NCBI GenBank assembly: GCA_008632985.1
Contig: QPGO01000019.1
Location: forward strand, 620,001-684,000
DNA length: 64,000 bases
Reading direction: 5' to 3'
Source: Psammoneis japonica
Lineage: Eukaryota
Shown here: positions 1-28,088 of the stretch, in pieces
How positions within the stretch are numbered: position 1 is the first letter of the stretch
Layout: every line of letters begins with the position of its first letter
Notes under the pieces: model-generated
What the model saw: the letters and a program-made list of their open reading frames with translations, nothing else
Database searches by the model: none
Told to the model about the DNA's origin: nothing
Position numbers and translations under genes: made by a program

Positions 1-490
1 GTCCCCTGTTGACACAGTGAACAAAGCAAATGCATTTGCCAATGACGCCAATCATGTCAAAGAATGCAGGCCCCCCCTGGCCCACACAAAGCCAGCGGCA
101 AGATGGAGATCTCTCCAAAGAAGACGACAATGAAGCCATTCATTTTGAAATGTGTCATGGTGACAACTCATTCCAGATGTCAGTTTCCGATGAAGATCAT
201 TCGACACCACCAGTGCCCTCTTGGAGAATGAATGTGGACGCACCATGCAGTCAGATGGTGTTGGTTGGTGCAGTGCGTGCGACGATGATCAGTCCTTCCG
301 TCTGTCGTTGGGAAATCCGCGACCACGAACGCCCGCCTTGCACAAACCAACGCGAGCCCCGATCGATAGCCACGCACCCCGCGCAAGCACGCCGCAAGCA
401 CGCCGCACGCCGCACCACTCGAAGATCGACGAGTGCATGCAGGATCTGCATGATGCGATCGTTGTTGTCCATCGCGTCGCTTCTTGTGTC
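1..490. other. TpA-depleted decayed sequence (end of a mutated block continuing left of the window)
   Basis: Only one TA dinucleotide (367-368) found by eye in the first ~490 bp; overlapping ORFs without recognisable product. Confidence 0.6.
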
Positions 491-3707: not shown

Positions 3708-5787
3708 CTAATAATTAAACCCAACAGGCTTTGGACGTATCTTTTTCTCCACATCACCTTGAACATCGCCGCAGCCTTGTTGCAACGAATCCAGAATGGC
3801 TTCCGCCACCACCATGCCGTCCACAGCAGCAGATACAATCCCCCCTGCAAATCCAGCTCCTTCTCCAGCTGGAAATAAGTTTTCTGTTCCAATAGCTTGC
3901 AGGGTCTGACCATCACGGGATACTCGGACTGGACTTGACGTCCTTGTCTCCACGGCATGAAGCAGTCCATCATCGCACAAAAAGCCTGGCATGTTCTTGT
4001 CAAACTGGTTCACAATCGCGTCCCGGAGGGCCGTCACAATGGCCTCGGGATAGATTTCGTGGCATGCAGCTGGCTTTACTCCAAGACGATACGAGGAAGG
4101 AGGCGCCGATACGGAGGCTCTTCCTGCACAAAAGTCAGTGAGACGCTGTACAGGAACCGTCAGGTTGCCACCTCCCATTCGAGCGGCACGTTGCTCCATG
4201 TCTTTTTGGAACGCAATGCCAGCCAGCACACCGTGTTCCTTACGGTACTTATCGAGGATTGCATCGTCGGGTGCCACCGTCACGACGAGTGCTGAATTGG
4301 CCCACTGCGAATCTCGCTTGCTAAAGCTCATTCCATTGACACAGACTTCGTTGGGATCAGTCGATGCAGGAACGATTTGTCCACCTGGACACATGCAGAA
4401 ACTATACGCCCCCCGATTGGCAACTCCGTCAAATGCCTTGTCAGTAGCGAGGCGATAGGATGGAACAGGCAATTGACCTGGATGAATTGCCTGGTCCACA
4501 CCCAAGTACTGCTTATTGGCCGTGTCGGTAGACTTTTTCTTTGTCACAACAGACGCGGCCCAATCTTGTCCGTATTGAATTCGGTTAATGATTTTCTGAG
4601 GGTGCTCGACACGAAAGCCAGTGGCAAATCCCTTTGCCTCAAGCTTGACACCAGCAGCATGTAGTTCTTCGTACACATCTCGTGCGGAATGCCCAGTGGC
4701 CAACACGACGGCGTCTCCAAGAATGGTTTCCTCCTCTTTCACGGGTAGAGAAGTAGCAGCATTCCCCCCGCGTTCACTTGTTGGGGAGTACTGGACCTGA
4801 ACTCCTTTTGTAACACCCTCATCTATAACAAAGCCAGTCACTTTTGCTCCAAATCGTATAATGCCACCAAGCTGTCGTAAATCTTGTCTCATGTTTCGCA
4901 GCAACCGAACAAGATTGTCGGTACCCAAATGCGGAGCTCCGTCCACAAGTATTTTCTCAGGTGCCCCATACTTGACCAGTGTCTCCAATACATATCTCAC
5001 ATTGTCCGAGTTACGTCCAATCCGTGTCGTGAGCTTTCCATCACTCCACGTTCCAGCGCCACCCTCACCAAAACAAAAGTTGGAATCTTTGTTTAGAAAA
5101 CGTCTGTGCATGAGAGCTCCAATATCCTTTCCTCGTGCTTCGACTGGCTGACCACGTTCAAGCAGTATGGGCACACAGGCGCCCGATTTTGCCAATTGCA
5201 TGCACAAAACAATCCGCAGGTCCAGCTCCACAATCACGACACGGGGCTTGTTGGATTCTGGGTGCTGTGGCTTATTTCGCTGCAGCATTCGAGACAGTAG
5301 CCTCTTGATTTTCAATCAATTCCAATCGTCCCGGTTGGTGTCGTAGCTTGAGTCTCTTGGCTATGGATGGCGATACATCTACATCCACTACATGAGAATA
5401 TCGTGGATCACCTCGATTCTTCCGTCGTGCATCTACGGATCGACGAACCATGCGCACGTTCGACAGCTCGACAGATTTGTTTTTGAGATTGAGTCGCTTG
5501 GAAGAGCTACCAAGACGGGCTTGGATAAATACATTTGTCGATAGTCACCGCTTCGTCCGTAGTAGCGGTCAAAGATCAGGATGAACATTGACTCCAAACA
5601 CTCTCCACGTTTGTGTCTCTCTATGGGGTACGTTAGATCTGTCATGGTTTGTTTTTGACTTTATCTCCGTGTTTCTGCATCTTCTAGAATGAGAATTACA
5701 CGAGAGCGATGTTGATGTCCATCCTGAAGAGGAATATACAATGCAAAGTAGCAGTATTAGCGACTCTTTTGTTCTTAGAATCGCCAT
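3708..5787 (-). CDS. FAD/NAD(P)-dependent oxidoreductase (uncharacterised conserved dehydrogenase family) with N-terminal targeting peptide; 5' part carries several apparent frameshifts
   Basis: GEGGAGTWSDGKL, VVLATGHSAR, SFCMCPGG, ETRTSSP, GEGAGFAGGIVSAAVDG motifs; the Rossmann GAGPAG and VRRSVDARRK segments lie in shifted frames at 5200-5580; hydrophobic N-terminus MAILRTKESLILLLCIVYSSSG. Confidence 0.8.
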
Positions 5788-5866
5788 GACGACGGCTTCA
5801 GAAAAAAAGAAGAAAAATGAGGGATGATTGGCACTGGATGCGATGTGCGATGCGTGCATGCGCGCG

Positions 5867-6004
5867 ATTGTAGCAGCGCAGGGGGAAGGACAGACGCATC
5901 CACCTCCCACCGTACGCAGCCTTGAACGAACCTGAATGCCAATGGCATTCTTTGCAACTCGTCGCCGCCTATCGAGGCCGTAGTAGTAGTTGTAACTTTT
6001 TGAC
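5867..6004 (+). repeat. Split direct repeat A1 (138 bp; second copy A2 at 11941-12078)
   Basis: Ungapped alignment to A2 with 8 mismatches. Confidence 0.95.
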
Positions 6005-6037
6005 AAAGGGAGCGACATACGCCAACCTTGTCCTCTC

Positions 6038-8122
6038 ATGGCTGCTGTCCCTCCTGTGGCAGCCGGTGGAGCGCCTCCGGCTCCCCCAAAAACACACCAC
6101 GACAAGTGGATGAGTCAAGGAGATCACTTGGGTGGGGAGTGTGCGAATTTGTTCCGTCGGCACGATGCCACCATCGCTGCTCCCGAGCCGGCCGCCACGC
6201 CACTCGAGCACATCATCGACTTGAGCGATGTGGTCCCCAAGGCCTTCTTGGCGCCAGTGCGGCAAGGCACAGGTTGTCGTGCAACCTGCATCCACCGGCC
6301 CTCTGTGTGCATCAGAGACCCGGTGGAGACCTCGCCTTGGGACGGACGAGTGTTTTGTTTTCACGGAGACGTCCCACCGGGTAATTTTGTTGCCATTTTC
6401 GAGATGCCCAACACTCCGTTCGACATTGTGGGGCCTCAAGTGGCACCTGCTGTGGCCAACATGGCCGCCCTCGAAGGTGCCTTGGTGGATGACAATGATT
6501 TGACACCTCCACAAACAGATGGCGCCCCGGACACCGACACCATCTATGTCCGCCGCCTCGTACAAGTGCCCCACGCCCACCTGCATCTTGCACTGACCCA
6601 GGATCTCACCCCACTGCAAGCCTGGCGGGAACTGGCAGGAGCAATCCAAAATGACGGTCGCGCGGGGGACTTGAGTCCTCTCATCGACTGGTTGCGCGCG
6701 GCACTCACCACCGACACCGCGGCAAATCCAGATCCGGTCCATTGTCTGGGCGACCGTGCCACTGCCTTGCTGCCACTTGCGGTGGACGCCAGACTGCAAG
6801 AGCATCGTTGGCGCACGTTGCTGCAAGACCCACCCGCCTTGGATTCAACGGCCGTTGATGACACCGACCGTGTGCTGGCCTTCGCTGACATGGTGCGAGC
6901 CGATGCAGCCCACGTGGAAGCAACACGCTCTGCAGCTGCAGCCGCAGCCTCAGTGCCCAAGACTCTGGTGGAAGCCTTCCCGCAGACCACACCCGTGTGG
7001 CTCTTGCTGTCGAGCGCACCGGACGATGCAGCCTTGCCCGCACTGTGCCACGCTTGGGCCAATGGTGCAAAGGCCGAGCGGCACCTGTGTTTTGCTCGGG
7101 CCTTGGAAGCGCACACCCAAGAACCCAACGCGGCATCTCGCATCGCACCTGTGGTGTCGAAGGAGCCATGCGAGATGGCATTGCAAGGGAAGGTTGCACC
7201 CCACGTGCACCAAGTGAACGACTTAACCGCCGGCGTGTCGCCCTTCACCTGTGGTTTCTTTCTTGCCGGACAAGGTTCCACCATGCAAGTCCGGGCCGAA
7301 CGCTACGACCTTGCGTTGGCTGGCAACCTGACACCTGCGGTTGCGGAACAAGAGGAATTCCGCACCAAGGGTGTGCCGCTGCCGACGTCCACTTGCCATT
7401 GTGGAAGCATGCTTCAAGCCACCAGCCCAGTCTTGGACGTCATCCAAGGCTCCGACCACCCACATGCTGTGGCTTTCCGGCAGTTTTGCCTGGAGGACTG
7501 GCGAGACATGGTCGACTTGCTCGAGCAATCCGGGACCCTGCTGGCAGAGGGAAACGTCCCACCCCGGATTTGTCGCGAGGTGCAGATGCTCATGGGGGTC
7601 TGTCTTCGCAGGCTCACACAAAGCGGGGTGCCCCGGGTGCCTGACTGCACCGCAGTGGCGTACAAGGTGCTGCACGGGCAATTCTCCCTGCTGGCACAGT
7701 TGCCTTGTCATCTGCTGGGCCAGCCAGACAGGGCGGGTGGTCCCCAAATGAGCTCGACTGGCGCCCCCAACAGCAGGACCACCTCCGCACCAGCCACTGC
7801 CGCTGGGCGTCGCGATCCCGGTGCGGCCGTTACGAGTCCCAACCCAGTGCGAGCTTGGCCAGCAGCCTTCGCACAAGCCGGAATCCGTTTGGCCACGGTG
7901 CGCTGCTTCGCACCCCGCACCATGGACCCGAGTGGCACCGCACGCAAAGTGTGCCTTTCGCATCATCTAAAGGGGACGTGCTTCGCCAACTGCGAGTGCA
8001 GCAGCACCCACCGGAACCTCTCGCCGCATGAAAGAATGGCAATGAGCACCTTCGTCCGCGACCACGTGGCCAACCCTCAAGAAGGTGGGGCCCCAGCACC
8101 GGCGCCAGCGGCATCCACCTGA
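6038..8122 (+). CDS. Gag-like ORF1 of the Ngaro-like element with C-terminal Cys/His zinc-finger-like motif (mutated)
   Basis: 694-aa ORF just after A1; C-terminal VCLSHHLKGTCFANCECSSTH; only 3 Tyr in 694 aa. Confidence 0.8.
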   Translation: MAAVPPVAAGGAPPAPPKTHHDKWMSQGDHLGGECANLFRRHDATIAAPEPAATPLEHIIDLSDVVPKAFLAPVRQGTGCRATCIHRPSVCIRDPVETSPWDGRVFCFHGDVPPGNFVAIFEMPNTPFDIVGPQVAPAVANMAALEGALVDDNDLTPPQTDGAPDTDTIYVRRLVQVPHAHLHLALTQDLTPLQAWRELAGAIQNDGRAGDLSPLIDWLRAALTTDTAANPDPVHCLGDRATALLPLAVDARLQEHRWRTLLQDPPALDSTAVDDTDRVLAFADMVRADAAHVEATRSAAAAAASVPKTLVEAFPQTTPVWLLLSSAPDDAALPALCHAWANGAKAERHLCFARALEAHTQEPNAASRIAPVVSKEPCEMALQGKVAPHVHQVNDLTAGVSPFTCGFFLAGQGSTMQVRAERYDLALAGNLTPAVAEQEEFRTKGVPLPTSTCHCGSMLQATSPVLDVIQGSDHPHAVAFRQFCLEDWRDMVDLLEQSGTLLAEGNVPPRICREVQMLMGVCLRRLTQSGVPRVPDCTAVAYKVLHGQFSLLAQLPCHLLGQPDRAGGPQMSSTGAPNSRTTSAPATAAGRRDPGAAVTSPNPVRAWPAAFAQAGIRLATVRCFAPRTMDPSGTARKVCLSHHLKGTCFANCECSSTHRNLSPHERMAMSTFVRDHVANPQEGGAPAPAPAAST

Positions 8123-10214
8123 GGACGAGGGCCGGCCAGCTCTAGAGCTGGCCTGCAGCCCTCCTCTGCACACTTGCCAGATCCGTGCCAGCAGTGCTCG
8201 CGCAGCAACGAACTAGGTGAGTTAGCAGAGGAGCACGTCAAACTCTTACAAACTTCAGGCTAGAGCCAGTTCGTTGCACATTTGCGCAGGGAGCCGTGTC
8301 TGGCCGAAAATGTTCAGCAGTCACCTCATCCAGCTGCCAAACTGCTTTCCGATCTCCGCAACGATGGAGCACCGGTCCAGTTTTCAACGGAGGACTGGAC
8401 ACCGGACCAGGTCCGGATGGCCACCGAGCGCGGAAGCCATCCGTCCACCAACGAGCACCTGGGTTTCCTCGAGTCGGACATGGCGGACATGATCCGAAAG
8501 CAATGCTGGACAGTCCTGCCGTTCCGTGAAGCCTGCAAGTTGCCCCACCTGCGCGTCTCACCGATGGGCGTGGTGCCACAACGCGACCGCCACCTGCGCA
8601 CCATCATTGATCACAGTTTCTACGGGATCAATGACGAAACCGTGAAACACGCCCCACCGGAGGCAATGCAATTCGGCCGAGCTCTCGACAGGTTCCTCCA
8701 CAGGATCTTTCGAGCCGATCCGAAGCATGGCCCAGTGCACATGCTCAAGCTTGATCTCTCAGACGGATTCCATCGCGTTGGGCTCCGCCCCCAGGACATG
8801 CCAAAGCTTGGGGTGGCCTTCCCAGTGAGTCCAGGCGAGGAACCGTTGGTGGCACTGCCTCTCGTCCCACCCATGGGCTGGACTGAAAGTCCACCATTCT
8901 TTTGTGTGGGAACGGAAACTGTCGTTGACATTGCTGACAGCTGTTTGCCCACATCGTGGGACCCTCCGATTCACCCACTCGAACAGGCGGCATCCACTCC
9001 AGTGCCCCACGACGACACCATGCGCATCGATGTGCCACCGCCTTCCACTGCAGCTCTAGCCAGCCATGTGTCACGCCTTCCTTCTCCCACCGCACTTCAT
9101 CGCAGACACCAGCGCGGCTCCCAACCGTTGGAGCACTTTGATGTCTACGTCGACGACGAGATGTGCGCCACACAAGGATCGAAAGCTCGCCTCAACAAAT
9201 TATGTCGCCGCCTCTTGCACATCAACGACCAAGTCTTCCGGCCCAACACACCATCCGATGCTCACTGGCGGCGCGAGACTATCTCGCTCAAGAAGCTCCT
9301 CAAAGGTGACGCGTCCTGGTCTGCGGTCAAAGTTGTTTTGGGTTGGCTCATTGACACGCTAGCAGGGACAATCCAATTGCCGCCGCATCGACGACAACGC
9401 CTCCTGGACATGCTTGCTGACACCATTCCACGTCACCGCACATCCAACAAGCAATGCCACAAACTTCTCGGCGAAGTGCGCAGCATGCTGTTGGCGGTTT
9501 CCGGCGGCGCTGGCCTGCTCTCCAACCTCCAGCACTCTCTTGCCACCTCGAGTAACTCCCGCACTCGAATCAACCGTCATGCGCGCCGCCAACTCCAAGA
9601 CTTGCACACCTTGGCGGCAGACATTGCCTCTTGTCCCACGAGGCTCGCCGAACTGTTCCCTGCCGCCGATGGGCACTGCTGTGGTGCGTGCGACGCAGCC
9701 AAACCAGGGTTTGGCGGCGCGTCATTGCCAGGTCCCCTCGACGACTTCCCTCCGACCGCCTGGCAAATTCCACTGCCACCGGATCTGCAAGCTGCCATTG
9801 TCTCGGACGACAACCCCGATGGCACCACAACAAACTCTGACCTCGAACTCGCCGGAACTGTTTTGTCAAGAAGCCGTCGTAGGCATCACCGTCGATGTCA
9901 GAGAACGCACGGTCCACACGTGCTGCGACAACACCCCCGCGATTTCTCGACGCGGCAAAGGCTCCATCACCACCAACGGCCCAGGCGCCGATGTCCTGCG
10001 AACCAGCAGCCTGCAACAACGCAAGCTCCGACATGTCTCCCGCTTTCATTGCATGCCTGGCCCAGCAAATCTCCTTGCCGACATGTGCTCCCGCAAATTC
10101 AGCACACCGTCTCACCTCCTTGCCACTCTCACTTGCCTTGCCCCACAGACGAAACCTTGGCAAATGCCACTCCCGCCGCCCAACATCGTTTCTTTGCTGA
10201 TCTCCACCTTGTGA
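8118..10214 (+). pseudogene. RT-RNase H ORF2 of the Ngaro-like element
   Basis: SPMGVVPQRDR, LKLDLSDGF(H)R, PMGWTESPP, YVDD, CDAAK.GFGG, NSDLELAG, CDNTPA motifs; in-frame TAG at 8261-8263 and frameshift near 9865. Confidence 0.88.
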
Positions 10215-11731
10215 CGGCAAAGGCCCGCGAAGCTGTCACTGACAAGCAAGCCTGTGCCACGGACACTGTCTGGGCCAAATGTTGGTTGCCATTCCCACCC
10301 GACATCAGAGTTGAAGACCCTCTCCTCACCGGTGTCCAAGACAAAATCCCGATGCTCCAAGTCTTTGCCTGTCGCCTCAGGGATGGACGCCTCAGCCATG
10401 GCGGCAACCCAATCTCAGCTCTGCACGTTCGTGACGAAGTCCTTCATGTCGCGAAGACGTTCACCGAACTGGGGGCCCCGGACCCACGTTTAACGCCACA
10501 TGGCACCATGGATCCACGTCTCACTCGCCTGCACAGCGCGTGCTCCAAAGACGATCCACCTCCGAACCGTGTTAAACCTCTCCCAACACAAACAGTGCAC
10601 CACGCGCAGGCCCTTGTCGACAAATCTTCCCCACTCGACAACGCCATCATCGACATGTCCTGGATTGGGCTCTTCCACCTCTTGCGACCAGGTGAACATT
10701 GCAAAAGCAAAGACAATGATCCCTTGGTCTTGGCCGACATCAAGCTGCTCATTGGACAACGAGCACTCGACCACTTGACCTGTCCATTGCCGCAGCTGTT
10801 CCTCGCTGCACACAGCAGCATCACCTTCAACATTCAGAAAAACCGAGAACGCGGCAAAACGGCAGGTCACGCTCGAAGCTCACACTCCAAAGTGTGCCCC
10901 ATGCTGCCATCGCCCGCCACGTGCATTGCCTGCATTCAAATGGCGCCAACGCTTGAACAGCCCTGTGTGCCGTGCGCCTCGGCAGATGTTGGGGGACGTG
11001 TTCCAGCTCTAGGTGGGACCTCGTGCTGCTGAACTGTGACACAATTATTTTTTGTCATCCGTCGTATGTTTCGCACGTACATTTCTACGTGTTCCATTGT
11101 AAAAAATTGTTCCACACTGCCTGTTTTGCGAAGCCAAAGGCTTTCTGTTGTCTGCACTTGTGTCAATAAAAATGCGCTGGGCACATTCTTTAATGTCTAA
11201 AGAATGTGCCCGGGCATGCTGTAAAGAATGCACTTAAAGTGTGGAGGAGGAGATGCATTCGCAAAATTGCCTCTTTTTCTGTTGGCGATCATTCATGTGT
11301 CCATTGCTCAACGATTTTACTGCGGAGCTCGCACGTAGAATTCTGCGGGCCCAATGTCACAAAAAGTCCCACCTAGGACTGGAACCCGTCGGGGTCACGT
11401 CACAAGCCGTGCCATCACCAAAATGCTCCAAGTGTTGGCCGCCACCTTGCCACATCTGGGCTTCCCACCCAAGGACGTCACCGCACGTAGCCTCCGAGCA
11501 GGGGGCGCCACGGCACTCCTGTGCACCAAAGCAGACACCGACATCATCCACCTCGTCGGACGATGGAAATCCAACACCATGTTTCGACACCTTCATGCCC
11601 AAGCGCTGCCGCTGATCGCAGGACTCTCCACGAAAATCCTGAACCACGGCAACTTCACGTTACTCCCGGGTTCCGACGTCCCCCCCGTTGCACAAAATGT
11701 CATCAATCAAGCCAAAGCACCCGCCAACTGA
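10150..11731 (+). pseudogene. Tyrosine recombinase ORF3 of the Ngaro-like element, interrupted by a MITE
   Basis: DPPPNRVKPLP, LLRPGE(H)C, QKN, RSLRAGGATALL, VGRWKSNTMFR(H)LH; frameshift ~10900, TGA ~10955, insertion 10995-11390; start approximate. Confidence 0.88.
10995..11390. mobile_element. Non-autonomous DNA transposon (MITE), 396 bp, ~25-bp imperfect TIRs, GGGG target-site duplication
   Basis: Left GACGTGTTCCAGCTCTAGGTGGGAC vs reverse-complemented right GACGGGTTCCAGTCCTAGGTGGGAC; GGGG at 10991-10994 and 11391-11394; excision restores YR frame LGRCWGHVTSRAITKML. Confidence 0.85.
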
Positions 11732-11810
11732 CGGGTTCACATCTTTGCCCACCCTCAGCTCCGCTTCTGGCCCAACCCCTTGTCACTTGTCGGCGCTCCA
11801 AGAGTGGCAG

Positions 11811-12236
11811 ATCGGAGGCGGTCTCTGTTGCTGGTGAGCCAAAAGAGGGCAAGATGCCCCAGCAAAGCGCTGACACCACCAACTGCCACCTCCCAACTAC
11901 AGTGGGACGCACCCCCCAGCAATGTTGGTGGCAATCAGCCATTGCAGCAGCACAGGGGGAAGGACAGACGCATCCACCTCCCACCGCACGCAGCCTTGAA
12001 CGAACCTGAATGCCAATGGCATTCTTTGCAACTCGTCGCCGCCTGTCGAGGCCGCAGTGGCAGTTGTGACTTTTTGACCCTCCACTCCCACCCAGTGCCG
12101 CCTCATCGGAGGTGGTCTCTGTTGCTGGTGAGCCAAAAGAGGGCAAGATACCCTAGTGAAGCGCTGACACCACCAACTGCCGCCTCCCAACTATAGTGGG
12201 ACGCACCCCCCAGCAGCGTTGGTGGCGAACAGCCAT
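11811..12236 (+). repeat. 3' split repeats B1-A2-B2
   Basis: B1 11811-11942 and B2 12105-12236 are 132-bp direct repeats flanking A2. Confidence 0.93.
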
Positions 12237-12766
12237 GGATACATGAGTGATGAGCGTGGATGTGCGTTCGTCGTCCGTCATTCAAAGCTAACCACCCGCA
12301 ACCCGCAACCACTAGAGAGTAGCTTGGAAACTGCGCATTGGGCATCTTTAGAGTTGCTCTCTAGAGAAGTAAGTTACACATCACCGGTCCTTTTGTTAAG
12401 TGTGGCTCTGGAATTCTAGACTGTCGGCTGCGAGGAAACGGGCAGAAGAAAAAAATGTGATGACAACAGGGAACAAGGAAGATTTTGAAGGATGCGCAAG
12501 TGCGGAAAAAAAACTGCAGCAAAGTCACTTGTCATCTCCCAGAAGACCTCTACTCTAGAGAGTAGTTCTTCCACTCCCTCTCTAGATACAGTAGAGTAGA
12601 GCTGGGTAGCGTCATCAGACCCAATTCAACATTTTGTGTGCACATGAGTGAAACACTGCTAGCTAGTGGAGTTCTCACAAAAATCATTATCATTCTACTA
12701 CAATTATAAAGCATCATACGTCCAATTCACAAACAAGCAAATACTGCGGGATTTGATTCATCCCGT

Positions 12767-13981
12767 TTACTCCTCACGATAGTCACACTTTAAAATAAAG
12801 ACCCCATGAGAGTTACCGGTAAGAGCACCCAAGGCATATCCAAGAACCAAGTCCCCGTCCTTTGGACTCTTCTCGGATAATTCTAGACGATGATGCAAGG
12901 CGCATCCAACCGAAGTGCCCGCCAGATTGCCAAACTTGGATCCAATAACAGACGTCTTGTCGGCGCATTTGAAATGATCACACACCATGTTGATGACTTT
13001 GGGGTTAGCCTGATGAAACACAATGTGTTGAAAAGATTTCAACGAGTAACCATACTTGGCCCTCAAGGAAGTAAGCCAATAACGAAGACTGTCTGGTATA
13101 GCCTCGGGGCCTTTTGGGTTGAGGCAGAACACATCCATCGGATCACCGCCATCGTCGAGGTTAATAGAACCGCGCGACGAAATGAATAGATCGGGATCAC
13201 AAACAATGTCTGCATCCAGCAGCTTGTAGGTGCGCTTTGGTAGGTTTTTCGTCGAGGTGGACAAAATGCAGGAGAAGGCTGCGTCTCCAAAAATGACGCA
13301 GTTGATCCACCGGAGAAGGTTGTTGTCCTTGCAGAGGGCCTGCCTGTGTCTCTCTTCGACTCCAAACTTGGAAGTGCAGTTGCTAATCACAATCGCGACG
13401 TTGGTGTTCTCTGGTGACTGAAGAAGCTGATTGGCCATCCTGAGTGCGTGAACCAATGCCGGGCAACCATAAGGCAAAATAATGAGCTGGAGTCTCTTGG
13501 AGAGCTTGGGGTATCGCTTGTACCAGTCAATGCCAGCTTGATTGAAATAGACATTGTCCACCGTACAGGAAACGTAGATCAACACGTCAATATCTTCCAC
13601 CTTGGTCTGCGCTTTCTCCAAGGCCTCATCAAAGCTGCGGAACATGAGCTCTTCCTCCGTGATTTCGCCGTCAAACTGCATTTCCTCGGGAGGGACACGG
13701 CCCTCCATCCCTTCTGGCTTCCTTCCTATAGCAATGTGCGTCATGTTTAGGTATCGAACAGCCCAGTCATCGGCTAATCCTTTGCCATTTTTTGGGTTGT
13801 GAATCCCATACTGTTCACGAAGTCCCCGGCAAATAGTTTCCGTAGAGATACTGGCTCCTGGTACCCCATTAAAGCCCGGAATGGCGCTGGACATGCCACG
13901 AATGCGCACCGTTAGTTCGCCATCTGCCTGACCATGAGTCCTGCGCTTCGTTGATCGAGGTGCTCCACATATAAAGCGCAT
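12767..13981 (-). CDS. 3-oxoacyl-ACP synthase III (FabH/KAS III)-like condensing enzyme, intronless
   Basis: Cys-His-Asn triad motifs PYGCPALVHAL, IVFHQANPK, FGNLAGTSV; IFGDAA; first ATG at 13981. Confidence 0.8.
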   Translation of the reverse strand: MRFICGAPRSTKRRTHGQADGELTVRIRGMSSAIPGFNGVPGASISTETICRGLREQYGIHNPKNGKGLADDWAVRYLNMTHIAIGRKPEGMEGRVPPEEMQFDGEITEEELMFRSFDEALEKAQTKVEDIDVLIYVSCTVDNVYFNQAGIDWYKRYPKLSKRLQLIILPYGCPALVHALRMANQLLQSPENTNVAIVISNCTSKFGVEERHRQALCKDNNLLRWINCVIFGDAAFSCILSTSTKNLPKRTYKLLDADIVCDPDLFISSRGSINLDDGGDPMDVFCLNPKGPEAIPDSLRYWLTSLRAKYGYSLKSFQHIVFHQANPKVINMVCDHFKCADKTSVIGSKFGNLAGTSVGCALHHRLELSEKSPKDGDLVLGYALGALTGNSHGVFILKCDYREE

Positions 13982-17069: not shown

Positions 17070-18072
17070 CAATTGTAGATCCTTGTAATCTGCGTTAAAA
17101 AGTGGTTCACCATTTTGAATTGCAAGCTGTGTTATGACAGCTACAGCCTGAAATACATCGGCATGCTTCGACAGTGGTTTGTGGCGAAACCTTTTCTCCA
17201 GAATTGCCCAATTTTTGAAGCGTTCGTGCACGTCTCCTGTCGATTGAGAGCACGCCTCTGCATTTCTTCCATCTCCTTCGGGTTTGCAAAACTGCTGGGG
17301 CACTTAACATGGATGGGGGACTCACCCACACACCCATCGTCAGCCTCCATGCGTTCCCCTTGTCCAGTTCCGTCTTCAATGCCGATCGAAAAATGTCCAA
17401 GTCGTTGTGCACACCGGGCGCAAAGGGCCCATTAATCCACACAATGTGACCGGTCAAAATGCATGCTGCACTTCGTAACGAAGTCCGCAGTCATTGAATT
17501 TATGAGAGTAAAACTTCCTGCCGTGATTCGGGACACGAAAGTCTGTTCCGTCCACAGCAACTGGACAATCGTTTCCGACGTCACCAGTGCGGCGATTCTC
17601 CCAAATCATCTGGGCAGAACAAACAACAACACAAATGATGCGGGTGAGAATCAATTTTTTGAAAAATGTGGAAATGTTGTCGCAATTGGGCACTCACCAA
17701 GCATGGCTCGAGCAATGCAATGGCCTTGATCATTGGCCACTTCCATGTTCGGAAAGTTTTTTCGTCGACTCCCCCAGCTTTGCCGGCAAGGTCAGTTTCC
17801 TTGCCATCAGATTTCAAAAAATTAAGTGCCCACAGCATGTGGCAGGCATTTGCTCCGTGGGGCAGCACGTCGTGGTGGACGAGGAGGTTCCACAGCGCGA
17901 GAGCCACGATTGGGCCGCAACCAAAAAACTCACGAAAACGCCTGTCCTCGGTCATTGTGGCGCCAAACTTCTTGTCACCTCTGTTCATCATTCCACGCCC
18001 CAAATTCATGAGGTCCTGCAGTCCGAGGGCAAGCCAGCGCATCCTCTTTTTATCTGGTTGAAAAGCGGCCAT
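17070..18072 (-). pseudogene. Harbinger DDE transposase (DDE_Tnp_4-like), one intron (~17610-17696), about three frameshifts
   Basis: FREFFGC, VDEKTFRTWKW, VAVDGTDF, YSHKF..GLRYEV, TGHIVWINGP, EADDG(C)VGE, ERFKNWAIL..RFRH motifs across frames; 3' end approximate. Confidence 0.85.
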
Positions 18073-18842
18073 GGCGAGTGGTGGGCCGGAGCAAAACAAT
18101 GTTGTCTCAGTGTGAAGCATGAAGCGCAACAACAAAATCTCAATGATTGGTGGGACTGGGATGTCTTCCAGTGTGGACCGTAGCAGTGCCACTGCGCGGT
18201 GCGCACGTGGGACACTGCCTCCATGATGCGCAGATCTCTCGTTTAGCTGGGTGCGTGACGTGATGCAGTTGGATGTTTTTGTAGCTCTTGCGCAGAAAAG
18301 ACGCTTTTTTTTTTAGGCGAGCTCACGCGTTTTCTGCCACACATTTTTAGAAAGTGTGACAAAACTTTGGCTCAACGGAAAGTTGTGGCCACAGACATTT
18401 TGCTGCACATCCGGGTTTCTTCTTCAATCCCACAGGATTCTCAGTGCACTTTCTACACGAGCTTAGAGAATCCGGATGTACAGCGAAAAACTGTGACCAA
18501 AGCTTTACATCCGGGTCTTTGTGTGACGTAGCTGCCAGCAGTGATTCTACGTAACATCCGGGTTACATGCAAAGCCAAAGTTGCGCCATCAAAGTTTTTT
18601 GTCGAAAAGCTGTGACGCAACCAAATAGCCCACATAATCAGGGGCCCAAAAATGTGTGATAAAAATGTCATTTTCACGAGTTCGTTGTAGAGATGTGCTA
18701 GAGATCGCGCCATTTGTCCGTTGGTGTCGGTCTTGTTGATCGATCGTTTCAGAAAAACCAAAGCAGCTCTGCTGTTTGCTGTTCACACGGCACACTCAAC
18801 ACGGCCCACAACCCACAACAGGAGGAAGCCACGACGAATGCC

Positions 18843-20159
18843 ATGAGCAACGGCAGCTCTGCTCGTTGGACGAAAGAACACAACAAAAGGCTTGTGGAGC
18901 TTGTCAAAGCTGGCAAGATTGATCCGCAGCTCATTGACTTGCAACACGTCAAGAAGGCACACGAGAAGCACTTCAGTGACCTTCTGAAGTGTCAGACTTT
19001 CGCTCAGCAGTGCCGCAAGAAGTGCAAGCAGTTGGAAGTCGACGAACTTCTTGCAGGCAGGCGGAAGCAAGGCAAGCACCACAACAATGCCATTCTTGCT
19101 TGTTTTGTTATTCTTGTGCTCGTGCCATCGTCTGCCGGTGTCTGCTTTGATTGCACGACTTGCCACAGGCACCAAGCGACGCACCGAGGAAGAAGTGAAA
19201 GACCAAGAGGAGTCGAGCAAGGAAGAGGAAACCGAAGACGAATCCTCAGAAGACAAAGGCGCACACTCAAGTGACGAGGAATTTGGCACCAGCATGCCGG
19301 GCAAGACAAAGACCACCCCCAAGAAGTCCCAAGACGTGAACAACGACCTCGCATCAAAGTTCAAGTCGTCTGCTGTGATTTCGTCTTCTGGCAAGAAGAA
19401 GGTGGGGAGCAACAAGAAGGCAGACGCCTTTGTGAAGAAGGGAGCGATGACTCGTGAGTGTGGCTACTTTTTCTTAGCGTCTCCGTGGGCGGCGTCCGAC
19501 AAGCGCATGCACGTGACCGTGGATGTCCTTGTTCCGCCTTTCGCCACGTCACACTGGCACCCGAAGGTGTCTGATTGCGGCACCAAGGTGATCATCAATG
19601 AGCGCATCCCTTCTTGGATGTTTAGGAAGGATCGTGTGTGCAAATCTGTTCTCACTTCTAGGCTCTCTCTACAGAAGACCAAGTCCTGAAGGAAAGCGGA
19701 ATCGAGCAAGCCGGACAGGCGCTGCTCAAGTCTCAAGGCGTTGAAGAGACTGTTGGCAACGGCAAATGCCGCATGGTTCTCTACCGCCCCCACACTGTTC
19801 GCCTTCCATTCCCCTGTGAGAGTGATTTTTATTCTGCAAGCAGCAAGGCCGGTTGGAAGCTCGAAGCATTTGTCCATGACAACGAAGAACTTGTGGAGCA
19901 GGCGCAAGGTCACATGCTCCTTTCGATGGAGCTGGTGGCGGTGGAGAAGCCACTAGAAGAGGGCAAGGCAGTTGAAAGGATCAAGTTTCTTGGTCAGTCC
20001 CCTCTAGATGCTGCAATTGCCAAGAAGGAAGCGAGGCGCAGTCGTGAGGCACAGTGCGGACGTGCAGCGGCGGCGGGAGAGCACGTCAGCGGCTGTGATG
20101 ACATGGACTCCGATTCGGACAGTGAGGGCAACCTCAAAGATGATGATGATTACTTGTAG
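18843..20159 (+). pseudogene. Harbinger ORF2, putative Myb/SANT-like DNA-binding partner, with a likely intron 19072-19168 and frameshifts
   Basis: N-terminal ARWTKEHNKRLVELVKAG helix motif, acidic linker, position inside the TIRs opposite the transposase; splicing joins RRKQ to GTKRR. Confidence 0.65.
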
Positions 20160-20586: not shown

Positions 20587-22601
20587 ATGACAGCCGCTGA
20601 GGAAGAAATTGAAGTTGACTTGGAGGAGCATGAAGAATTGGTTTTGGATAGTTTGGATGACACAGAGCACTCACGCGCTATCGAGTTGCCGAAACCGACA
20701 CCTGTGCATTTGGAGTACGGCGTGACCTTTTCTATTGAGACCGGTGAGAAGAAGAAGAAAGCGTTGTTGGAATGTGTTAAAGGAGAAGCAAAACCTGGTG
20801 ATTTAGTGGCCATAGTCGGAGCGTAAGTCGTTTCAACTTCGCTGATCAATTCGATGATAGCCATGACGGATCTTACTCATACATGCGCAGTTCTGGTGCA
20901 GGCAAGACCACACTCCTGACTGTTTTAGCGGGTCAAAAGTCTTCCTTTCGTGGCAGCGTATCCTTCAACGGCGTACCAATATATAAAGTACTGCAGAGCG
21001 AATCCCCTCTCTTTTGTTTCGTCCAACAAGAAGATTTATTCATCCCGAGCATCACTCCGCGGGAACACTTGATTTTCTCAGCACGTCTTCGTATTGACAG
21101 AAGCGTGTCTGACGAGGACAAACTCCGCCGTGTTGATGAGCTGTTGGAGGAATTAGGTCTAAAAAAGTGCGCAAACACTCCTATTGGAGGGGCCGGCGCA
21201 CTTGTCCGTGGACGGATCTCAGGTGGAGAACGAAAGCGTCTAAGCCTCGCGACAGAGCTCTTGTCGAATCCATCCGTTATCTTCACGGACGAACCCACGT
21301 CGGGTTTAGACAGCTTCATGGCTGAAACTGTGGTGGCAAAGCTTGGTAGCCTTGCTCGGGCGGGACATACGATCTTGGCAACGATTCATCAGCCATCCTC
21401 CTACGTCTTCTCTGCTTTTACAAAACTTCACTTGTTGTCGAATGGAAGAACCGCCTACTCAGGTACAACGTCAGGTGCCGTAGAATACTTTGCATCCATT
21501 GGAAAGCCGATCCCGCAATTCTTGAATCCAGCAGATTACTACATTAAGCTGCTGAGCATTCCAAGTGTCTCGGAGGAAGTCCTGGAAAAGTGGGAACAAA
21601 GAGCAATCGTTGAAGAAGATGCAAATTGCCATCGACGAAGCAAGCTCAGAAGGGCTTCGACTGTGAAGCTTATGCTCGCAAAGAAGAAATATGCTGTGTC
21701 CTGGTGTACACAATTCAATCAGCTCATGAAAAGGACAGTGTTGGCTTATAAGCGTGACGCAACACTCGGAAGGATTCGTCTGGGACAAACCGTTATAGTC
21801 GGCTTGGTGGTGGGGGCGATCTTTGCCATGCTTGGCAAATCCCCAATCAAGGCCGACAACGTCCAGTCAGTGAATGGTATTCTTTTCTTTTCTGTATTAA
21901 ATCAGAGTCTCCTTGGCTCAATAGGAGTGCTGCAGGTTTTCCCGCTTGAAAAGCCGATATTTTTGCGTGAAACATCGGCAAGTTCATACAAGACATCATC
22001 CTATTTCATGGCAAAATCCTTTGCAGAGTTTCCTTTCCAGGTGGTGTTCCCTTTTATTTTTGCAACCATTATTTACTTCTTAGTCGGTTTTGGTGCCGCC
22101 GGATCCGCCGGCTCCTACTTTACGTTCGTGTTGTTTGTTGTCTTGACGGCAGTTGCCGCAGTGAGTTTTGGATATTTCTTCGGGAGCATTGTTCCGAGCG
22201 TCGGACTAGCTCTGACTGTGGGTCCGTTATTTCTCATGGTAAGTTGTTATCTTTGTTGTATCTAGTCATTCTAGGAACGCATCGATCTGACGAATGTTTT
22301 CATTATGGGGTTGCAGCCGCTTATTATCTTCGGTGGGCTCTTTATGAATGTCGACCAAATTGATCCCTGGTTTGTGTGGATATCGTACCTGTCTTTTGTG
22401 CGTTATGGTTTTGAAGGAGTGATGATCGTGATTTGGGAGCAGGAAGGCGATCTTGGTCGCGCAGTTTTGGAATCATTTTCATGGAACGTCGACCACAAAT
22501 GGCGAAACGTTGGATGCCTAAGTGCACTCATTCTTGGTTCCCGAGTTCTGGCAATGGCAGCTCTCAAATTCCAGTCCGTGAACAAAACTAAAACGAGATG
22601 A
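20587..22601 (+). CDS. ABCG (White-like) half transporter; introns 20823-20890 and 22239-22316
   Basis: Walker A GASGAGKTT across intron 1, signature ISGGERKRL, Walker B IFTDEPTSGLDS, TIHQPS, then a multi-pass TM domain; GT-AG introns. Confidence 0.93.
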
Positions 22602-22756
22602 AAAAAATATGACACGGCAAAAAGCACTTCCGACTGGCGTTCTTCGAAAACTCAATTTATTATGATTTTGGATGCTGCAACACTGCTGCCGTGCTCTACT
22701 AAATAAGGAAGTTCCCATCCTACAAGTGGACCAAATTCAGTTTACAGCTAAACAGA

Positions 22757-25492: not shown

Positions 25493-28088
25493 CTCCAAAA
25501 GCAAACCAAGAGTAACAATAACAACCACAACAACTGCAAAGAGGGCGTGTGTGTTTTTGTGTTTCGTGTTCGGTGTTTAGTGTTCGTGCTCTCTGTTCTC
25601 TGGCGTCAAGCTCACATCTCACACAAGATCAGAATACATACGGGGGTCGTGCCGACACGACAAGGTCAAATGACTCTGACACTTTGCTTGTAATAATTGT
25701 TGCTGAAAAAGTCATAATTGACAATGGCCTACAAAAAGACTTATAGAAAATCTTTGTCACTTGGGATTTGGACACTGGGCCTCGTTCGGTTGCATCTTGG
25801 TCTTTCCATTGATGTGCTGAGAAAGGATGATTGTTGCAATGTCATCTTGCTCAGCAAATCTGATCTTTTTGAATCCGCTGCACCCCACATTTTGATGCAC
25901 AGTGACTCGAGTGCACTGACCTTGTGGCAGCCCTTGCAGCCTGCAAGAAAGAGAGTCAAAAAACTGTTGGCAAATGCTCAGCAGAAAGTCGCCCTTTGGC
26001 TCACCTTCCTCAGATCCAACGCACAAATGACACGGGGTGGTGAGAACATCTCCCCACACTCACAGCATCAACACCACTGTCAACTCTCTTAAGATGACAA
26101 AGATCATGCACATCAAAGTTTCAGCCTGCAGCAAGGGCGCGGCAAACTCCTGCCTGCAGATGTGTCATTTGTGGACACAAGGCTTTAAAAGAAAAAATGG
26201 TGGCTGGCACAGCCTGCCAACAGACAAACCAAAATGTGTGAAGCCAACCACTGTGCTGCCTGCACAGAGGACCAACAAGCAACTTCATCAGCAGTTTTGC
26301 CCCCACTCAACTTTTGTCAAAGCAGGTGTCTTCCACAGCATGTGTGCCATTCCACAAGATCAGCTGGGTCCTGACGCCACTGTTTGACACCAGCACCAGC
26401 ATGACCCAGCATCTGTGCATGCAAAACCACCCCAAGCCAAGTGCCATCATTTTGCATTTGATTTGGGCACAATTCAACGTGAGTTAAACTTTAAAGAGAC
26501 ACATCTTTGAACAACAACCCCGTGCTTTGAACAAACCAAGTGCAAGAGTCAAACACAAAATGCAGTCATGGGAGGAAACACTGCCACAATTTTGAGAGTA
26601 AAGAGTGGGACAAGTGAGCAGGATGAAGGATCCTCAAGGACAATGGCAGCCACCATTCACCGTGCATTGTGCATGCACACCTGGCTGGCAACTGTTCCAA
26701 AGAGCACTGTCTGCAAGCTCCCAACTTTCTTGAAAAGTGCGGCACATGATGTTGCAGCAGAGTGAGAACAGTGACCCACCCCTTTGTTTGTGCGAGATGA
26801 CTTTTTGCTTGCATGGCTTGTGGCAAATGCATGTTTTTTCTGGAGCTCTAGCACACCACTCATCAAATCTCCCAAAGACAGCCTTTCTGGTCAAACCTCA
26901 ACTGCAGGGTCAATGAACTTGCAAGGATCTGAAAAATGTGAGGGGCAATGGTGGCACAAGTGACTGCCCTGCCATGTCGGTGCTTCTAAACAACAACAAC
27001 AACAACAACAAGTTGGCAAGAAATTCTCTCATTGAATGTGTGCTGCCCCCCCCTGATGGCTTCTCCAGAAAACCATTGGTTGCATGGGTCATTGCAAAAA
27101 AAAGCGTTGCAGCCATTCAACAAAAACATCCACAAAAAACAAAAAACTTGAGTCAACCCCTCATTGAAAAATTCTTTGATTCTTCTCTCAAAGGCAAAGT
27201 TGTCAAAGACACCATCAACAAGATGAAGGATGATCATGGCTTCAAGACACCAAAGAACACCATGAAGCTCAAGTGTCTCACTGCATTGCACAAGATCTGG
27301 GTGACAAAGATGGATTCACCAAGTCTCTGCCCAAGGGACTTGTCCACTTGGAAAAATCCCTTTGGCTTCCCACAAGATGATGAAGCAGGAGAAGACACCT
27401 TGCCACATGGAAGTTAGTTCACAGCAGATGAAGCTTCCATTGAAGAGTGTGTCAATGACAACCTCAGCGGGGGTGCTGGCAACAAGACTGGCAGCAGGAG
27501 ATCAATGAAGCAGAAGAAGAAAAACAAAGGAAAGAATCACAAAAATTCCCTCTCCTCATCATCAGCAAGCTCCTCCTTCTCTGACTCATCATCTGAATCA
27601 TCCTCATTGGCTCAAGCAGTGGGGGGATGAATTTCACTGCAAGAAAGAACAAGAAGATGATCAGAAAGATGATCTCAGCAACAACTTGTGTGAGATCATT
27701 GGGCTGGCAACATGAAGGACAAACCCATCACTCAGAAGGACAGCACTTTTTCAAAAATCAATTCCAGAAACTTCCTTTTGCTCAGATGAAGATGCACCTC
27801 CAATGATTAAGACCCAATGCTGAAAAGGATAACTGGGTTGACATGTGCCTTGGCATCAATGTTCAACAAGCCAAAAAACTTGTTGAGGCCATCAAGTTCA
27901 CCCTCAAAGATTTTTTGATGCATTTCTCAAGCTCAAGGTGCTGCAGAATGTGGAACACACTAAGATGTGCAGGTGGCCAATGATGATCTCCAATCAGATC
28001 AACCCAGGAAAACTGGAAAGAAGATCAGCAAGCTGCTTGGCAAGCCAGCAGAGCTGCGAGCCACAAAAGTTGCCAAACCTGCTGACAC

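Follow-up and report, generated by a model that had tools for sequence, protein, structure and literature searches.

Loss of TpA from the interior of a dead Ngaro-like retrotransposon in a diatom genome, with TpA kept in its outer repeat copies

The window analysed here, a 64,000-nucleotide stretch of the nuclear genome of the diatom Psammoneis japonica, contains at 5864–12236 a dead Ngaro-like tyrosine-recombinase retrotransposon with split direct repeats. Its order is gag, reverse transcriptase/RNase H and recombinase, with the repeats arranged as A1 ... B1-A2-link-B2; the best protein match is only 57–58% identical, and the full-length reading is based on one copy of the family. On the plus strand, the outer 5′ copy of repeat A (A1, 5864–6004; 7 TpA kept, o/e 0.97) is followed by a gag-like ORF1 (5996–8122; 708 open codons, ATG at 6038) with 3 Tyr, 28 His and 23 Cys, whose sole Pfam match was zf-CCCH (E = 1.7). 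The spacer between ORF1 and ORF2 (8123–8263) contains a perfect 20-bp palindrome at 8134–8153, and its fold was not significant (z −1.78). The reverse transcriptase/RNase H part of ORF2 (8264–9862) is in frame and has YVDD, with conserved tyrosines 117 and 170 changed to histidine and a sub-threshold match to RVT_1 (E = 0.039). In the following zone (9863–10339) the long ORF departs from the frame of its relatives, and one base at 9866 is missing in three family contigs. The N-terminal and central part of the recombinase (10340–10993), where the LLRPGEY box has become LLRPGEH, is separated from the C-terminal part (11393–11725; SLRAGGAT..GRW.., with His for the catalytic Tyr, CAC at 11588) by a MITE-like insertion (10995–11390) with 25-nt terminal inverted repeats and 14 TpA kept in 396 bp. 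A model of the relatives' recombinase domain matches Cre and Xer. In the MITE the summed word depth is 67,773–160,537, against 42–59 in its flanks, and two family contigs join 10986 straight to 11387. The insertion, the frame break and the lost catalytic tyrosine mark this copy as dead. At the 3′ end lie the inner copies B1 (11811–11942; 1 TpA, 3 CpG lost relative to B2) and A2 (11938–12078), a C-rich link of 26 bp (CCCTCCAC..., 12079–12104) that is conserved in relatives, and the outer copy B2 (12105–12236; 4 TpA kept). Neither A2 nor the link contains any TpA, and the TpA-erased tract, bounded by the last TpA retained in A1 and the first retained in B2, spans 5995–12149.

An earlier note on this DNA had reported that A1 and A2 differ at eight positions, including every TpA of A1 and one CpG in ten, and direct pairwise comparison (5867–6004 with 11941–12078, 138 bp) confirms this. 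A1 has 7 TpA and 10 CpG, A2 has 0 and 9. All seven A1 TpA sites are changed in A2, four to CpA (T in A1, C in A2, at 5871, 5913, 5981 and 5987) and three to TpG (A in A1, G in A2, at 5971, 5985 and 5994); the eighth difference is CG in A1 and CA in A2, at 5878. A repeat search lengthens the pair to 5864–6004 and 11938–12078 (141 bp, 94%) and brings in a G/C transversion at 5866. B1 and B2 differ at 11 positions over 132 bp. Three are CA or TG in B1 and TA in B2 (11856, 11860, 11900; three of the four B2 TpA changed), four are of the CpG class (decayed in B1 at 11888, 11923 and 11933 and in B2 at 11819), two form a single CA-vs-TG double difference at 11863–4, and the remainder are a transition at 11922 and a transversion at 11935. 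The B pair was said to behave like the A pair, and for TpA it does, but its CpG change, four of seven sites, had been understated.

In these pairs the TA allele lies in the outer copy at all ten TpA differences (binomial p = 0.002), and both strands are affected, as had been claimed: the losses comprise four T>C and three A>G in the A pair and two and one, respectively, in the B pair. Of the 16 context-assignable transitions in the two pairs, 10 belong to the CpA–TpA class, against 47/353 (13%) when copies are compared with each other within 11 related elements (p = 5e-6). The process has progressed beyond CpG decay within these repeats, both in the A pair alone (7/7 TpA vs 1/10 CpG; Fisher p = 4.1e-4) and in the pooled pairs (10/11 vs 5/17; p = 0.002), and some tracts of the window have lost TpA and kept CpG. 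That it is much faster, as first suggested, holds quantitatively only for the A pair, since CpG decay is substantial in the B pair and the interior.

The depletion of TpA extends through the interior. Without the MITE, 6005–11810 holds 26 TpA in 5410 bp (o/e 0.17, 4.8/kb), with a TpA/ApT ratio of 0.18, G+C above that of the host and CpG not raised. Among 78 related elements TpA o/e is 0.32–0.85 (12.4–45.8 TpA/kb), and no 1-kb window in any of them falls to 0.2 or lower; the depletion of this copy is not a family trait. The edges of the tract fall at or near the repeat junctions, at 5995–6018 and 12069–12149, which leaves about 130 bp at one end of the element and about 90 bp at the other outside the loss. 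The same TpA loss recurs in four other sharp-edged tracts of the window (1–490, 17511–19470, 25751–37110 and 57001–59110). The last is a gene paralogue rather than a retroelement and carries the same signature; it has no Tyr in 542 residues, and a copy of the gene 2.4 kb away has 16 in 680. A 2.7-kb segmental duplication and the very high-copy MITE are untouched, and thus repetition alone is not the trigger. The MITE differs from its own family majority at two sites among those listed, neither of the TA-loss type, so either the process has been inactive there since the MITE arrived or it does not touch the MITE.

The direction of change was examined at 389 columns that at least 70% of relatives conserve, the relatives being represented by 60 proteins for the reverse transcriptase/RNase H and by 22 translated loci for the recombinase. 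At 84 of these columns this copy has a different residue; ten departures are single-step TA>CA/TG changes, with one more ambiguous, 11 are CpG decay, and none of the 84 is a CA/TG>TA change, the direction of fungal repeat-induced point mutation (RIP). The six in-frame conserved Tyr columns, the catalytic and RPGEY tyrosines included, hold four His, two Phe and no Tyr, and ORF2 as a whole has 2 Tyr in 922 residues (0.2%), compared with 1.1 to 3.3% in 120 homologues. At 8322 and 8936 the family majority has TA and the outgroup residue (Leu, Asn), where this copy has CA/TG and Ser and Asp. Relatives carry GTAGTAGTA followed by the C-rich link at the 3′ end of repeat A, in A1 and A2 contexts alike (L031 at 6 and 6954; L017 at 153, L014 at 5270; L029 partly), a form that agrees with A1 and disagrees with A2 of our element; the A1 motif itself, CGTAGTAGTAGTT, agrees with the A repeats of relatives. 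Judged by these outgroups from outside the genome (ten coding changes against none, and the GTAGTAGTA motif), the interior has changed from TpA to CpA or TpG, which bears out the proposed polarity, with about 13 CA and 7–8 TG products over the repeat and polarised sites.

The earlier note had suggested polarising with the family consensus, where CA or TG would make A1 the derived copy. At 5971, the one such site among the variant places listed, most sister copies do read the converted G on A1, in seven contigs with a combined depth of 429 of 496; at least one of these extends 74 letters beyond the site. The TA allele is nearly private to this locus (depth about 67, vs 42–59 for unique flank). 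However, the consensus is not a valid polariser, because sister copies in the same genome undergo the same conversion. In the comparison with the family majority, for which 40 of 1589 variant places were listed, CpG>CpA/TpG accounts for 16 of the 38 best-supported non-MITE differences of this copy among the places listed. The sparing of the outer ends is true of this copy but, with most sister copies reading G at 5971 in an A1 context, is no family rule.

We consider it probable that a TpA-specific mutation process erased the interior, including B1 and A2, and that A1 and B2 escaped and keep the ancestral TpA. Such a process would act almost exclusively on TpA, giving CpA or TpG, equivalent to A-to-G on either strand, and the A1/A2 and B1/B2 differences would be its footprint. 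In split direct repeats A1 equals A2 and B1 equals B2 at insertion, according to the account of these elements in PMC4157794, and such identity is seen in relatives (L029; L031; L014/L017). Post-insertion timing, the most likely reading, presumes that this identity also held for the present family. If the core reading is right, the balance tips modestly towards a process acting in place, in a silenced, CpG-methylated part of the element: the inner copies hold four of the five CpG-decay differences of the two pairs, which makes the inner part look like the methylated domain, and the prevalence of G at 5971 in the A1 context of sister copies implies that end sparing is not built into replication. 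Two observations sit less easily here. Tract edges at or near repeat junctions are not predicted by a chromatin domain, and the ORF1–ORF2 spacer and the MITE, both within the tract, hold 5 and 14 TpA.

An unlikely but still appreciable alternative is that the same editing took place before integration, by a deaminase acting on a single-stranded replication intermediate (RNA and minus-strand cDNA). The B1-A2 'splint' is thought to circularise DIRS/Ngaro elements, and pairing with it could have protected the cDNA ends that become A1 and B2. A tract bounded near the repeat junctions would fit, as would an untouched MITE, which never passes through cDNA, and more generally the sparing of a very high-copy DNA element where a retroelement was struck. 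Protection of A1 is not systematic, however, given the seven contigs with G at 5971; the similar numbers of CA and TG products would require editing of both RNA and cDNA; the signature also occurs in non-retroelement tracts such as 57001–59110; and the corresponding process in Bigelowiella natans, as described in the preprint discussed below, targets DNA that is already integrated.

It is improbable that the element is a chimera, in which A1 and B2 derive from an older unconverted copy or solo repeat and the interior with B1-A2 from a converted sister copy or circle, via recombination or gene conversion. Head-to-tail arrays among relatives (L002, L016, L058, L066, L067, L070) show that recombination among copies or circles is frequent, and both the switch points at repeat junctions and the nearly private TA allele at 5971 are consistent with it. 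Yet two exactly placed exchanges are needed, the donor still requires a TpA-erasing process, and an older outer copy should show more ordinary decay than the non-TpA private changes seen, at most one in A1 and about two to three in B2.

We give very little credence to explanations without a mutation process, namely selection against UpA in transcripts or mis-called modified bases in silenced DNA during sequencing or assembly. TpA is kept in apparently untranscribed or spliced-out parts (A1, B2 and the spacer) and the assembly of the window contains a 20-N gap, but selection cannot swap the catalytic Tyr, or four of six conserved Tyr, for His, and strand-mixed mis-calls would also create CpG, which is not raised. 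Moreover, contigs of run X1 contain 71% of the 31-mers sampled from the stretch (word depth about 42), and one X1 contig, 598 nt long, matches 5600–5896 with zero differences, although X1 may be the assembly's own data. Least credible of all is a RIP-like origin, in which a family originally poor in TpA gained it in A1 and B2 through C-to-T transitions at CpA sites of both strands: the CpA–TpA class is typical of RIP, the same-genome majority is G at 5971 and diatoms encode DNMT4 enzymes of unknown function related to the RIP enzyme RID (as described in PMC9998398), but the outgroup tests contradict it (0/84 departures against 10–11 in the opposite direction), in relatives both copies of A carry the 3′ motif in its TA form, TpA/ApT in the interior is 0.18 and its G+C is higher than the host's, not lower, and the equally repeated interior would need to have escaped totally.

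For the favoured process of TpA erasure, a tentative candidate chemistry is the one proposed for B. natans, in which an ADAT/TadA-like enzyme deaminates the adenine of TpA; oxidised-thymine mispairing or biased T:G repair could be alternatives. Its role would be to inactivate invading DNA, which would make it the mirror image of RIP in fungi.

The element resembles known Ngaro/PAT elements, as described in PMC4157794, in its gag, reverse transcriptase/RNase H and tyrosine recombinase, its A1-B1-A2-B2 repeats and an internal pair downstream of the recombinase; it differs in its diatom lineage, its distant best protein match and its being dead. Like RIP in Neurospora and other fungi, the process makes dinucleotide-specific transitions on both strands, inactivates repeated or mobile DNA and leaves sharp, nearly saturated tracts. 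Its polarity is reversed, however: RIP makes TpA from CpA and lowers G+C, whereas here TpA is destroyed and G+C goes up, and a high-copy MITE and a segmental duplication are spared. APOBEC3 and ADAR likewise offer deaminase-driven hypermutation that kills retroelement copies, and ADAR prefers a 5′ U before the edited A. Their traces are strand-asymmetric (plus-strand G>A for APOBEC, A>G for ADAR) and not limited to one dinucleotide, whereas here both orientations are similar in number and A shows no depletion outside this context. In enterobacteria, very-short-patch T:G repair depletes CTAG by turning TA words into CA/TG words. That depletion is tetranucleotide-specific, genome-wide and bacterial, and it is mentioned here solely as an alternative chemistry.

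The closest known case is the TpA-only hypermutation of integrated viruses in B. natans, an unrelated alga. In the preprint's account (Mettrop et al., bioRxiv 10.64898/2026.01.13.699255, 2026), the de novo changes that mutation-accumulation lines acquired in integrated viral regions (NCLDV and virophage DNA) were confined to TpA, which became TpG or CpA, and a defence against invading DNA was proposed. The two cases share TpA-only changes, TpG or CpA by strand, in discrete regions, and long-term TpA depletion with a gain of CpA and TpG; in B. natans the clusters concerned show an enrichment of reverse-transcriptase and transposase domains. Our host is a diatom (stramenopile) and not a chlorarachniophyte, and the evidence is comparative where that for B. 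natans is of de novo mutation. The depletion is far deeper (o/e 0.0–0.2, against 0.45 in the NCLDV region), and CpG decay, end sparing and coverage of a host-gene paralogue accompany it. The words diatom, retrotransposon, CpG and boundary are all absent from the main text of the preprint, and we found no literature report of TpA-erasing hypermutation in diatoms. The pattern in the diatom element may be the footprint of a TA-specific DNA-editing defence, of a kind so far reported, in that preprint, from one unrelated alga only.

The two repeat pairs of the element provide an internal control. The 6.4-kb copy has the order A1, interior, B1, A2, link, B2: A1 (5864–6004) and B2 (12105–12236) are the outer copies of repeats A and B, A2 (11938–12078) and B1 (11811–11942) are the inner copies, and the link, of 26 bp, separates A2 from B2. 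A search of the window found no second copy of the element. The earlier note had read the differences between A1 and A2 as conversion of TpA, and direct comparison reproduced its count of 8 differences over 138 bp. All seven TpA of A1 are altered in A2, to CpA at 5871, 5913, 5981 and 5987 and to TpG at 5971, 5985 and 5994, and one of ten CpG sites differs (5878; CG in A1, CA in A2). Between B1 and B2 there are 11 differences in 132 bp. Three of these belong to the TpA class, with CA or TG in B1 and TA in B2; four belong to the CpG class, with the decayed form three times in B1 and once in B2; and the remainder are one CA-versus-TG double difference, one further transition and one transversion. 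For the two pairs pooled, TpA sites differ at 10 of 11 compared with 5 of 17 for CpG (Fisher p=0.002; p=4e-4 for A alone), six changed sites reading CA and four TG, and the TA allele stands in the outer copy in all ten cases (p=0.002). As a control, diverged copies were compared within 11 related elements. Transversions were common there, and the CpA–TpA class made up 47 of 353 transitions (13%), as against 10 of the 16 assignable transitions in the present pairs (p=5e-6). The differences between A1 and A2 and between B1 and B2 are thus real and beyond chance.

The element is a Ngaro-like member of the DIRS order, because it combines gag, reverse transcriptase/RNase H and a tyrosine recombinase with the A1-B1-A2-B2 layout. 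The defining source places the internal pair of the split direct repeats 3′ of the recombinase (PMC4157794), and the inner pair of the present element lies downstream of its recombinase in the same way. ORF1 (5996–8122) and ORF2 (8264–11032) are open, and neither matched Pfam at default thresholds. ORF2 carries a YVDD motif and has 380 homologues, some already annotated as PF00078; the best share 57–58% identity, and those with a named source belong to the diatoms Fragilaria crotonensis and Epithemia. The RVT_1 profile stays under its curated cut-off, with E values of 0.039 in the element and 1.2e-4 in P0023, the protein of a relative. The reading frame of the relatives is abandoned near 9866. 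The 3′ domain is interrupted by a MITE-like insert inside the recombinase gene (10995–11390; 396 bp, with 25-nt inverted ends of 88% complementarity) and continues at 11393–11725. Alignment with 22 relatives defined the boxes LLRPGEY, SLRAxGA, GRW and RYLH, and the element itself has the recombinase motifs RPGE..SLRAGGA..GRW..RYLH. An AlphaFold model of the domain derived from the relatives' alignment (pLDDT 83.7) resembles Cre, Xer and the integron integrases (Foldseek E 1.6e-5, prob 1.00). The Phage_integrase profile gave sub-threshold matches in 7 of 24 members, and PDB sequence searches with P0023 and the recombinase profile gave none, so that the fold search alone succeeded. A methyltransferase domain is probably missing, as in Ngaro and in contrast to PAT/DIRS1: Pfam gave no match to one in the proteins P0002, P0023 and P0024 at E≤1, and little space is left between RNase H and recombinase. 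The ORF1–ORF2 spacer (8123–8263) contains a perfect 20-bp palindrome (8134–8153) and a GTGAGT...CAG pair (8218–8257) resembling a very short intron. Head-to-tail arrays of related elements, with periods of ~5.6–6.5 kb, were seen at six metagenome loci (L002, L016, L058, L066, L067 and L070); the units in L066 and L067 are only ~91–92% alike, which makes these arrays old features of the genome and not cycles of the assembly.

The host is a diatom. A FAD-dependent protein at 3708–5315 shares at most 72% identity with any protein found, and its named matches are all diatoms; nearby are the gene of a helicase-associated-domain protein and an array of Laminin_G_3 genes. At least five of these Laminin_G_3 (concanavalin-like lectin) genes lie in tandem on the minus strand at 22757–50203 and alternate with members of another conserved ORF family. 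In contigs of the coded sequencing run X1, the summed word depth of the element family is ~300–1100, compared with 42–59 in the flanks, and that of the MITE reaches 160,537; neither figure is a copy number.

The earlier note had proposed the family consensus as polariser. Of the seven A1 sites, 5971 is the only one among the 40 of 1589 variant places listed for sister copies, a single element copy having been read whole. There 7 contigs of sister copies (depth 429 of 496) carry G, and at least one of them extends 74 letters past the site. In one X1 contig an A2-like A repeat leads into the interior (12067 to 5994). On its face, this evidence would make A1 the derived copy, the outcome that the earlier note had named as its refutation. 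We reject the same-genome consensus as polariser, however, since the sister copies are themselves exposed to the process, and we polarised instead by relatives from other organisms, in three tests. In the in-frame part of RT/RH, 238 columns are conserved in 70% or more of the 60 homologues, and the element departs at 32 of them: four by TA>CA, two by TA>TG, one ambiguously, six by CpG decay and none by CA/TG>TA. In the recombinase 52 of 151 conserved columns depart, with three TA>CA, one TA>TG, five CpG decays and no change in the RIP direction. Pooled over these 389 columns, ten losses of TA (seven to CA and three to TG, with one further ambiguous case) stand against no reverse change. Six in-frame conserved tyrosine columns have become histidine (four) or phenylalanine (two), among them the catalytic position of the recombinase (CAC at 11588) and the tyrosine of RPGEY; ORF2 retains 2 tyrosines in 922 residues, compared with 1.1–3.3% in 120 homologues, and its histidine and cysteine are elevated. 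Two sites, 8322 and 8936, keep TA and the outgroup-conserved leucine and asparagine in the majority of the family; this copy has CA/TG there, with serine and aspartate, and these two losses are private to it.

The end of repeat A gives the same direction. Among relatives with recognisable split repeats it reads GTAGTAGTA(G/A), followed first by A/T-rich sequence and next by a C-rich link, for example CCCTCCAC, and the motif is found in A1 and A2 contexts alike (L031 at 6 and 6954; L017 at 153 with L014 at 5270; partly in L029). A1 of the element reads CGTAGTAGTAGTT and A2 reads CGCAGTGGCAGTT. Outgroup polarisation, including this TA form of the motif in relatives, shows that A1 is ancestral and A2 derived. 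The direction from TA to CA or TG proposed in the earlier note is therefore upheld, by the conserved coding columns and by the relatives' A repeats, although the polariser proposed with it is not. Neither A nor B had a significant BLAST match among the 78 relatives, and the alignment of repeat B to relatives is too weak for polarising it, L031 alone hinting at TAG at 12194. The A-end motif occurs in distant relatives at L014:5264–5313, L017:147–190, L031:1–40 and 6949–6992, and L029:6150–6194, corresponding to 5978–6004 and 12052–12104 in the window; its A/T-rich run is AATAAA in L014 and L017, and a role in termination, polyadenylation or priming is possible.

TpA depletion is not a trait of the family. 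In 78 related elements from metagenomes, taken from the best 80 of 465 matches, TpA o/e is 0.32–0.85 (12.4–45.8 TpA/kb) and no 1-kb window has a value ≤0.2, and among 120 homologous proteins none has less than 1.07% tyrosine. The interior of the present element has a TpA o/e of 0.17, or 26 TpA in 5410 bp (4.8/kb) without the MITE, and a scan of it gave TpA 0.07–0.23 with CA 1.38 and TG 1.53. A 500-bp scan of the window found four further sharp-edged tracts: 1–490 (low TpA o/e, CpG ~1.0), 17511–19470 (low TpA, CpG ~0.85), the 11.4-kb tract 25751–37110 (TpA 0.00–0.13, CpG 0.00–0.21, CA/TG 1.5–2.4; with a 20-N gap at 31236–31255) and 57001–59110 (TpA 0–0.11, CpG 0.6–0.75). Host genes have TpA of 0.35–0.88 and CpG of ~1. 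The last tract is a paralogue of the adjacent cysteine-rich repeat gene at 61537–63579 (44% identity over 291 aa). It has no tyrosine in 542 residues, whereas the normal copy has 16 in 680, and Tyr-to-His and Tyr-to-Cys pairs occur where the two are aligned; the process would thus not be restricted to transposons. Pfam gave no match for sets of 18, 10 and 2 ORFs from the TpA-poor tracts other than the element, and none for the 17 ORFs tested in the 11.4-kb tract. For 17581–18312 the ESM Atlas offered a weak lead, HTH_Tnp_4 (a Harbinger-type transposase family), present in 11% of one cluster's members. Within the largest tract, a 300-bp tandem duplication (35757–36056 and 36069–36365) differs mainly at pyrimidine–purine steps, including three TG-versus-CA doubles. 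That tract is flanked on both sides by a 2.7-kb segmental duplication (~22130–24824 and ~37294–39959; 83–94% protein identity, including the 3′ end of an ABC transporter gene), both copies of which have normal TpA.

CpG decay in the element is also real, and it is not slow. We took the 38 best-supported non-MITE differences between the element and the family majority, among the 40 of 1589 variant places listed. At 16 of these the majority has CpG and this copy CpA or TpG; at four the majority has TA and this copy CA or TG, with two the reverse; eight sites form four TG-versus-CA doubles, and eight are other changes. Such doubles, like those in the tandem duplication, are the expected product of an ancestral TA (or CG) resolved independently in two copies. 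In the repeat pairs the decayed form of CpG is in the inner copy in four of five cases, and transposons are CpG-methylated in diatoms according to PMC9998398; on these two grounds the inner element behaves as a methylated domain would, and the outer ~130 and ~90 bp do not. The tracts range from TpA gone with CpG intact, through CpG half gone, to both gone, and this agrees with a loss of TpA faster than the decay of CpG.

The closest precedent is the TpA-restricted hypermutation of integrated viral DNA in Bigelowiella natans (bioRxiv 10.64898/2026.01.13.699255). In that preprint, 231 of 302 new substitutions in 15 mutation-accumulation lines fell within two integrated viral regions; a single one of those was neither A>G nor T>C, and every GC-biased one was at TpA. 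The rate was ~1000-fold over background, in only some lines, and the authors propose an ADAT2-like adenine deaminase. The tract 5995–12149 would be the product of a process of this kind, because dinucleotide, direction and strand symmetry all match. Conversion would have taken place after insertion, in the integrated copy, since split repeats are expected to be identical at insertion (PMC4157794; L029, L031 and L014/L017), since the losses at 8322 and 8936 are private, and since CpG decay shows a parallel bias to the inner copies and A1 of sister copies is converted at 5971. Both edges of the tract lie at or near repeat junctions, the ORF1–ORF2 spacer inside it retains 5 TpA, and the MITE retains 14 TpA in 396 bp, a normal content; these features, together with the untouched segmental duplication, oppose a simple chromatin-domain model. 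The MITE has two listed differences from its own majority among the variant places listed, neither of the TA-loss type. That the MITE and the segmental duplication are untouched shows that repetition alone is not the trigger. A hairpin protecting the spacer TpA was considered and rejected: its fold does not stand out from shuffled sequences (z −1.78), and it would leave the central TA in the loop.

The main rival is editing before integration. A TpA-specific deaminase would have edited the single-stranded cDNA or RNA except at ends paired to the B1-A2 junction as a splint, leaving A1 and B2 as a replication footprint. Such editing accounts for the junction-sharp edges and for the exempt MITE, but it leaves unexplained why A1 is converted in sister copies, why the two strands are hit alike and why tracts outside retroelements carry the signature, and we consider it improbable. 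If true, the pattern would map the DIRS/Ngaro circularisation intermediate, long postulated and never observed, and would imply a cDNA-directed restriction system in diatoms. Weaker still are a RIP-like gain of TpA, which finds no RIP-direction change at the 389 conserved columns, a chimeric origin of the copy, selection against UpA and base-calling artefacts.

The repeat pairs also serve as a ruler that sets the loss of TpA (10/11) and the decay of CpG (5/17) beside a background change of ~1–2%. Models of target choice are limited by the sharp boundary inside the element and by the MITE and the segmental duplication that escaped; these are new constraints, and a rate faster than CpG decay is another. 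There are practical consequences too. Because TAA and TAG stops are lost, ORFs of more than 100 codons abound on both strands and in all six frames of the erased tract, and 5000–13000 is overlapped by 37 ORFs of 100 aa or more, so that gene finders would over-call in such tracts, and the dating of insertions by repeat divergence is distorted by them.

Compared with known systems, the element differs from fungal RIP, which converts C to T at CpA with an excess of TpA and a loss of G+C: its TpA/ApT is 0.18, its G+C is 0.59 compared with ~0.47 in the host, and RIP-direction changes are absent. Nor does it carry the strand-asymmetric trace of APOBEC- or ADAR-type editing, as both orientations are present, with CA o/e of 1.38 and TG of 1.53 and with ~13 CA compared with 7–8 TG at repeat and polarised sites. 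With the B. natans type it shares the change of TpA to TpG or CpA, the direction from A/T to G/C, and discrete tracts poor in TpA and rich in CpA and TpG; the cut-offs of the preprint are TpA ≤0.43 and CpA+TpG ≥1.52 in runs of 1-kb windows (bioRxiv 10.64898/2026.01.13.699255), and the element's CA and TG values lie close to the second. The targets here are a retrotransposon, and so mobile DNA, a gene paralogue (57001–59110) and tracts without a Pfam match, the high-copy MITE being exempt. In the literature searched, which lies outside the subscription journals, TpA-specific hypermutation is not reported for any diatom, and diatoms are absent from the main text of the preprint (bioRxiv 10.64898/2026.01.13.699255). 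The TpA-erasing process has so far been measured in one organism, a chlorarachniophyte, in that single 2026 preprint; what is new here is a deeper signature, polarised by outgroups, with converted and unconverted repeat copies as a built-in control. The same signature in a diatom suggests that the process is spread across SAR algae rather than a curiosity, and moves the question to a group that includes genetically tractable model species. The element is a new case, in another major lineage, of a very recently described process.
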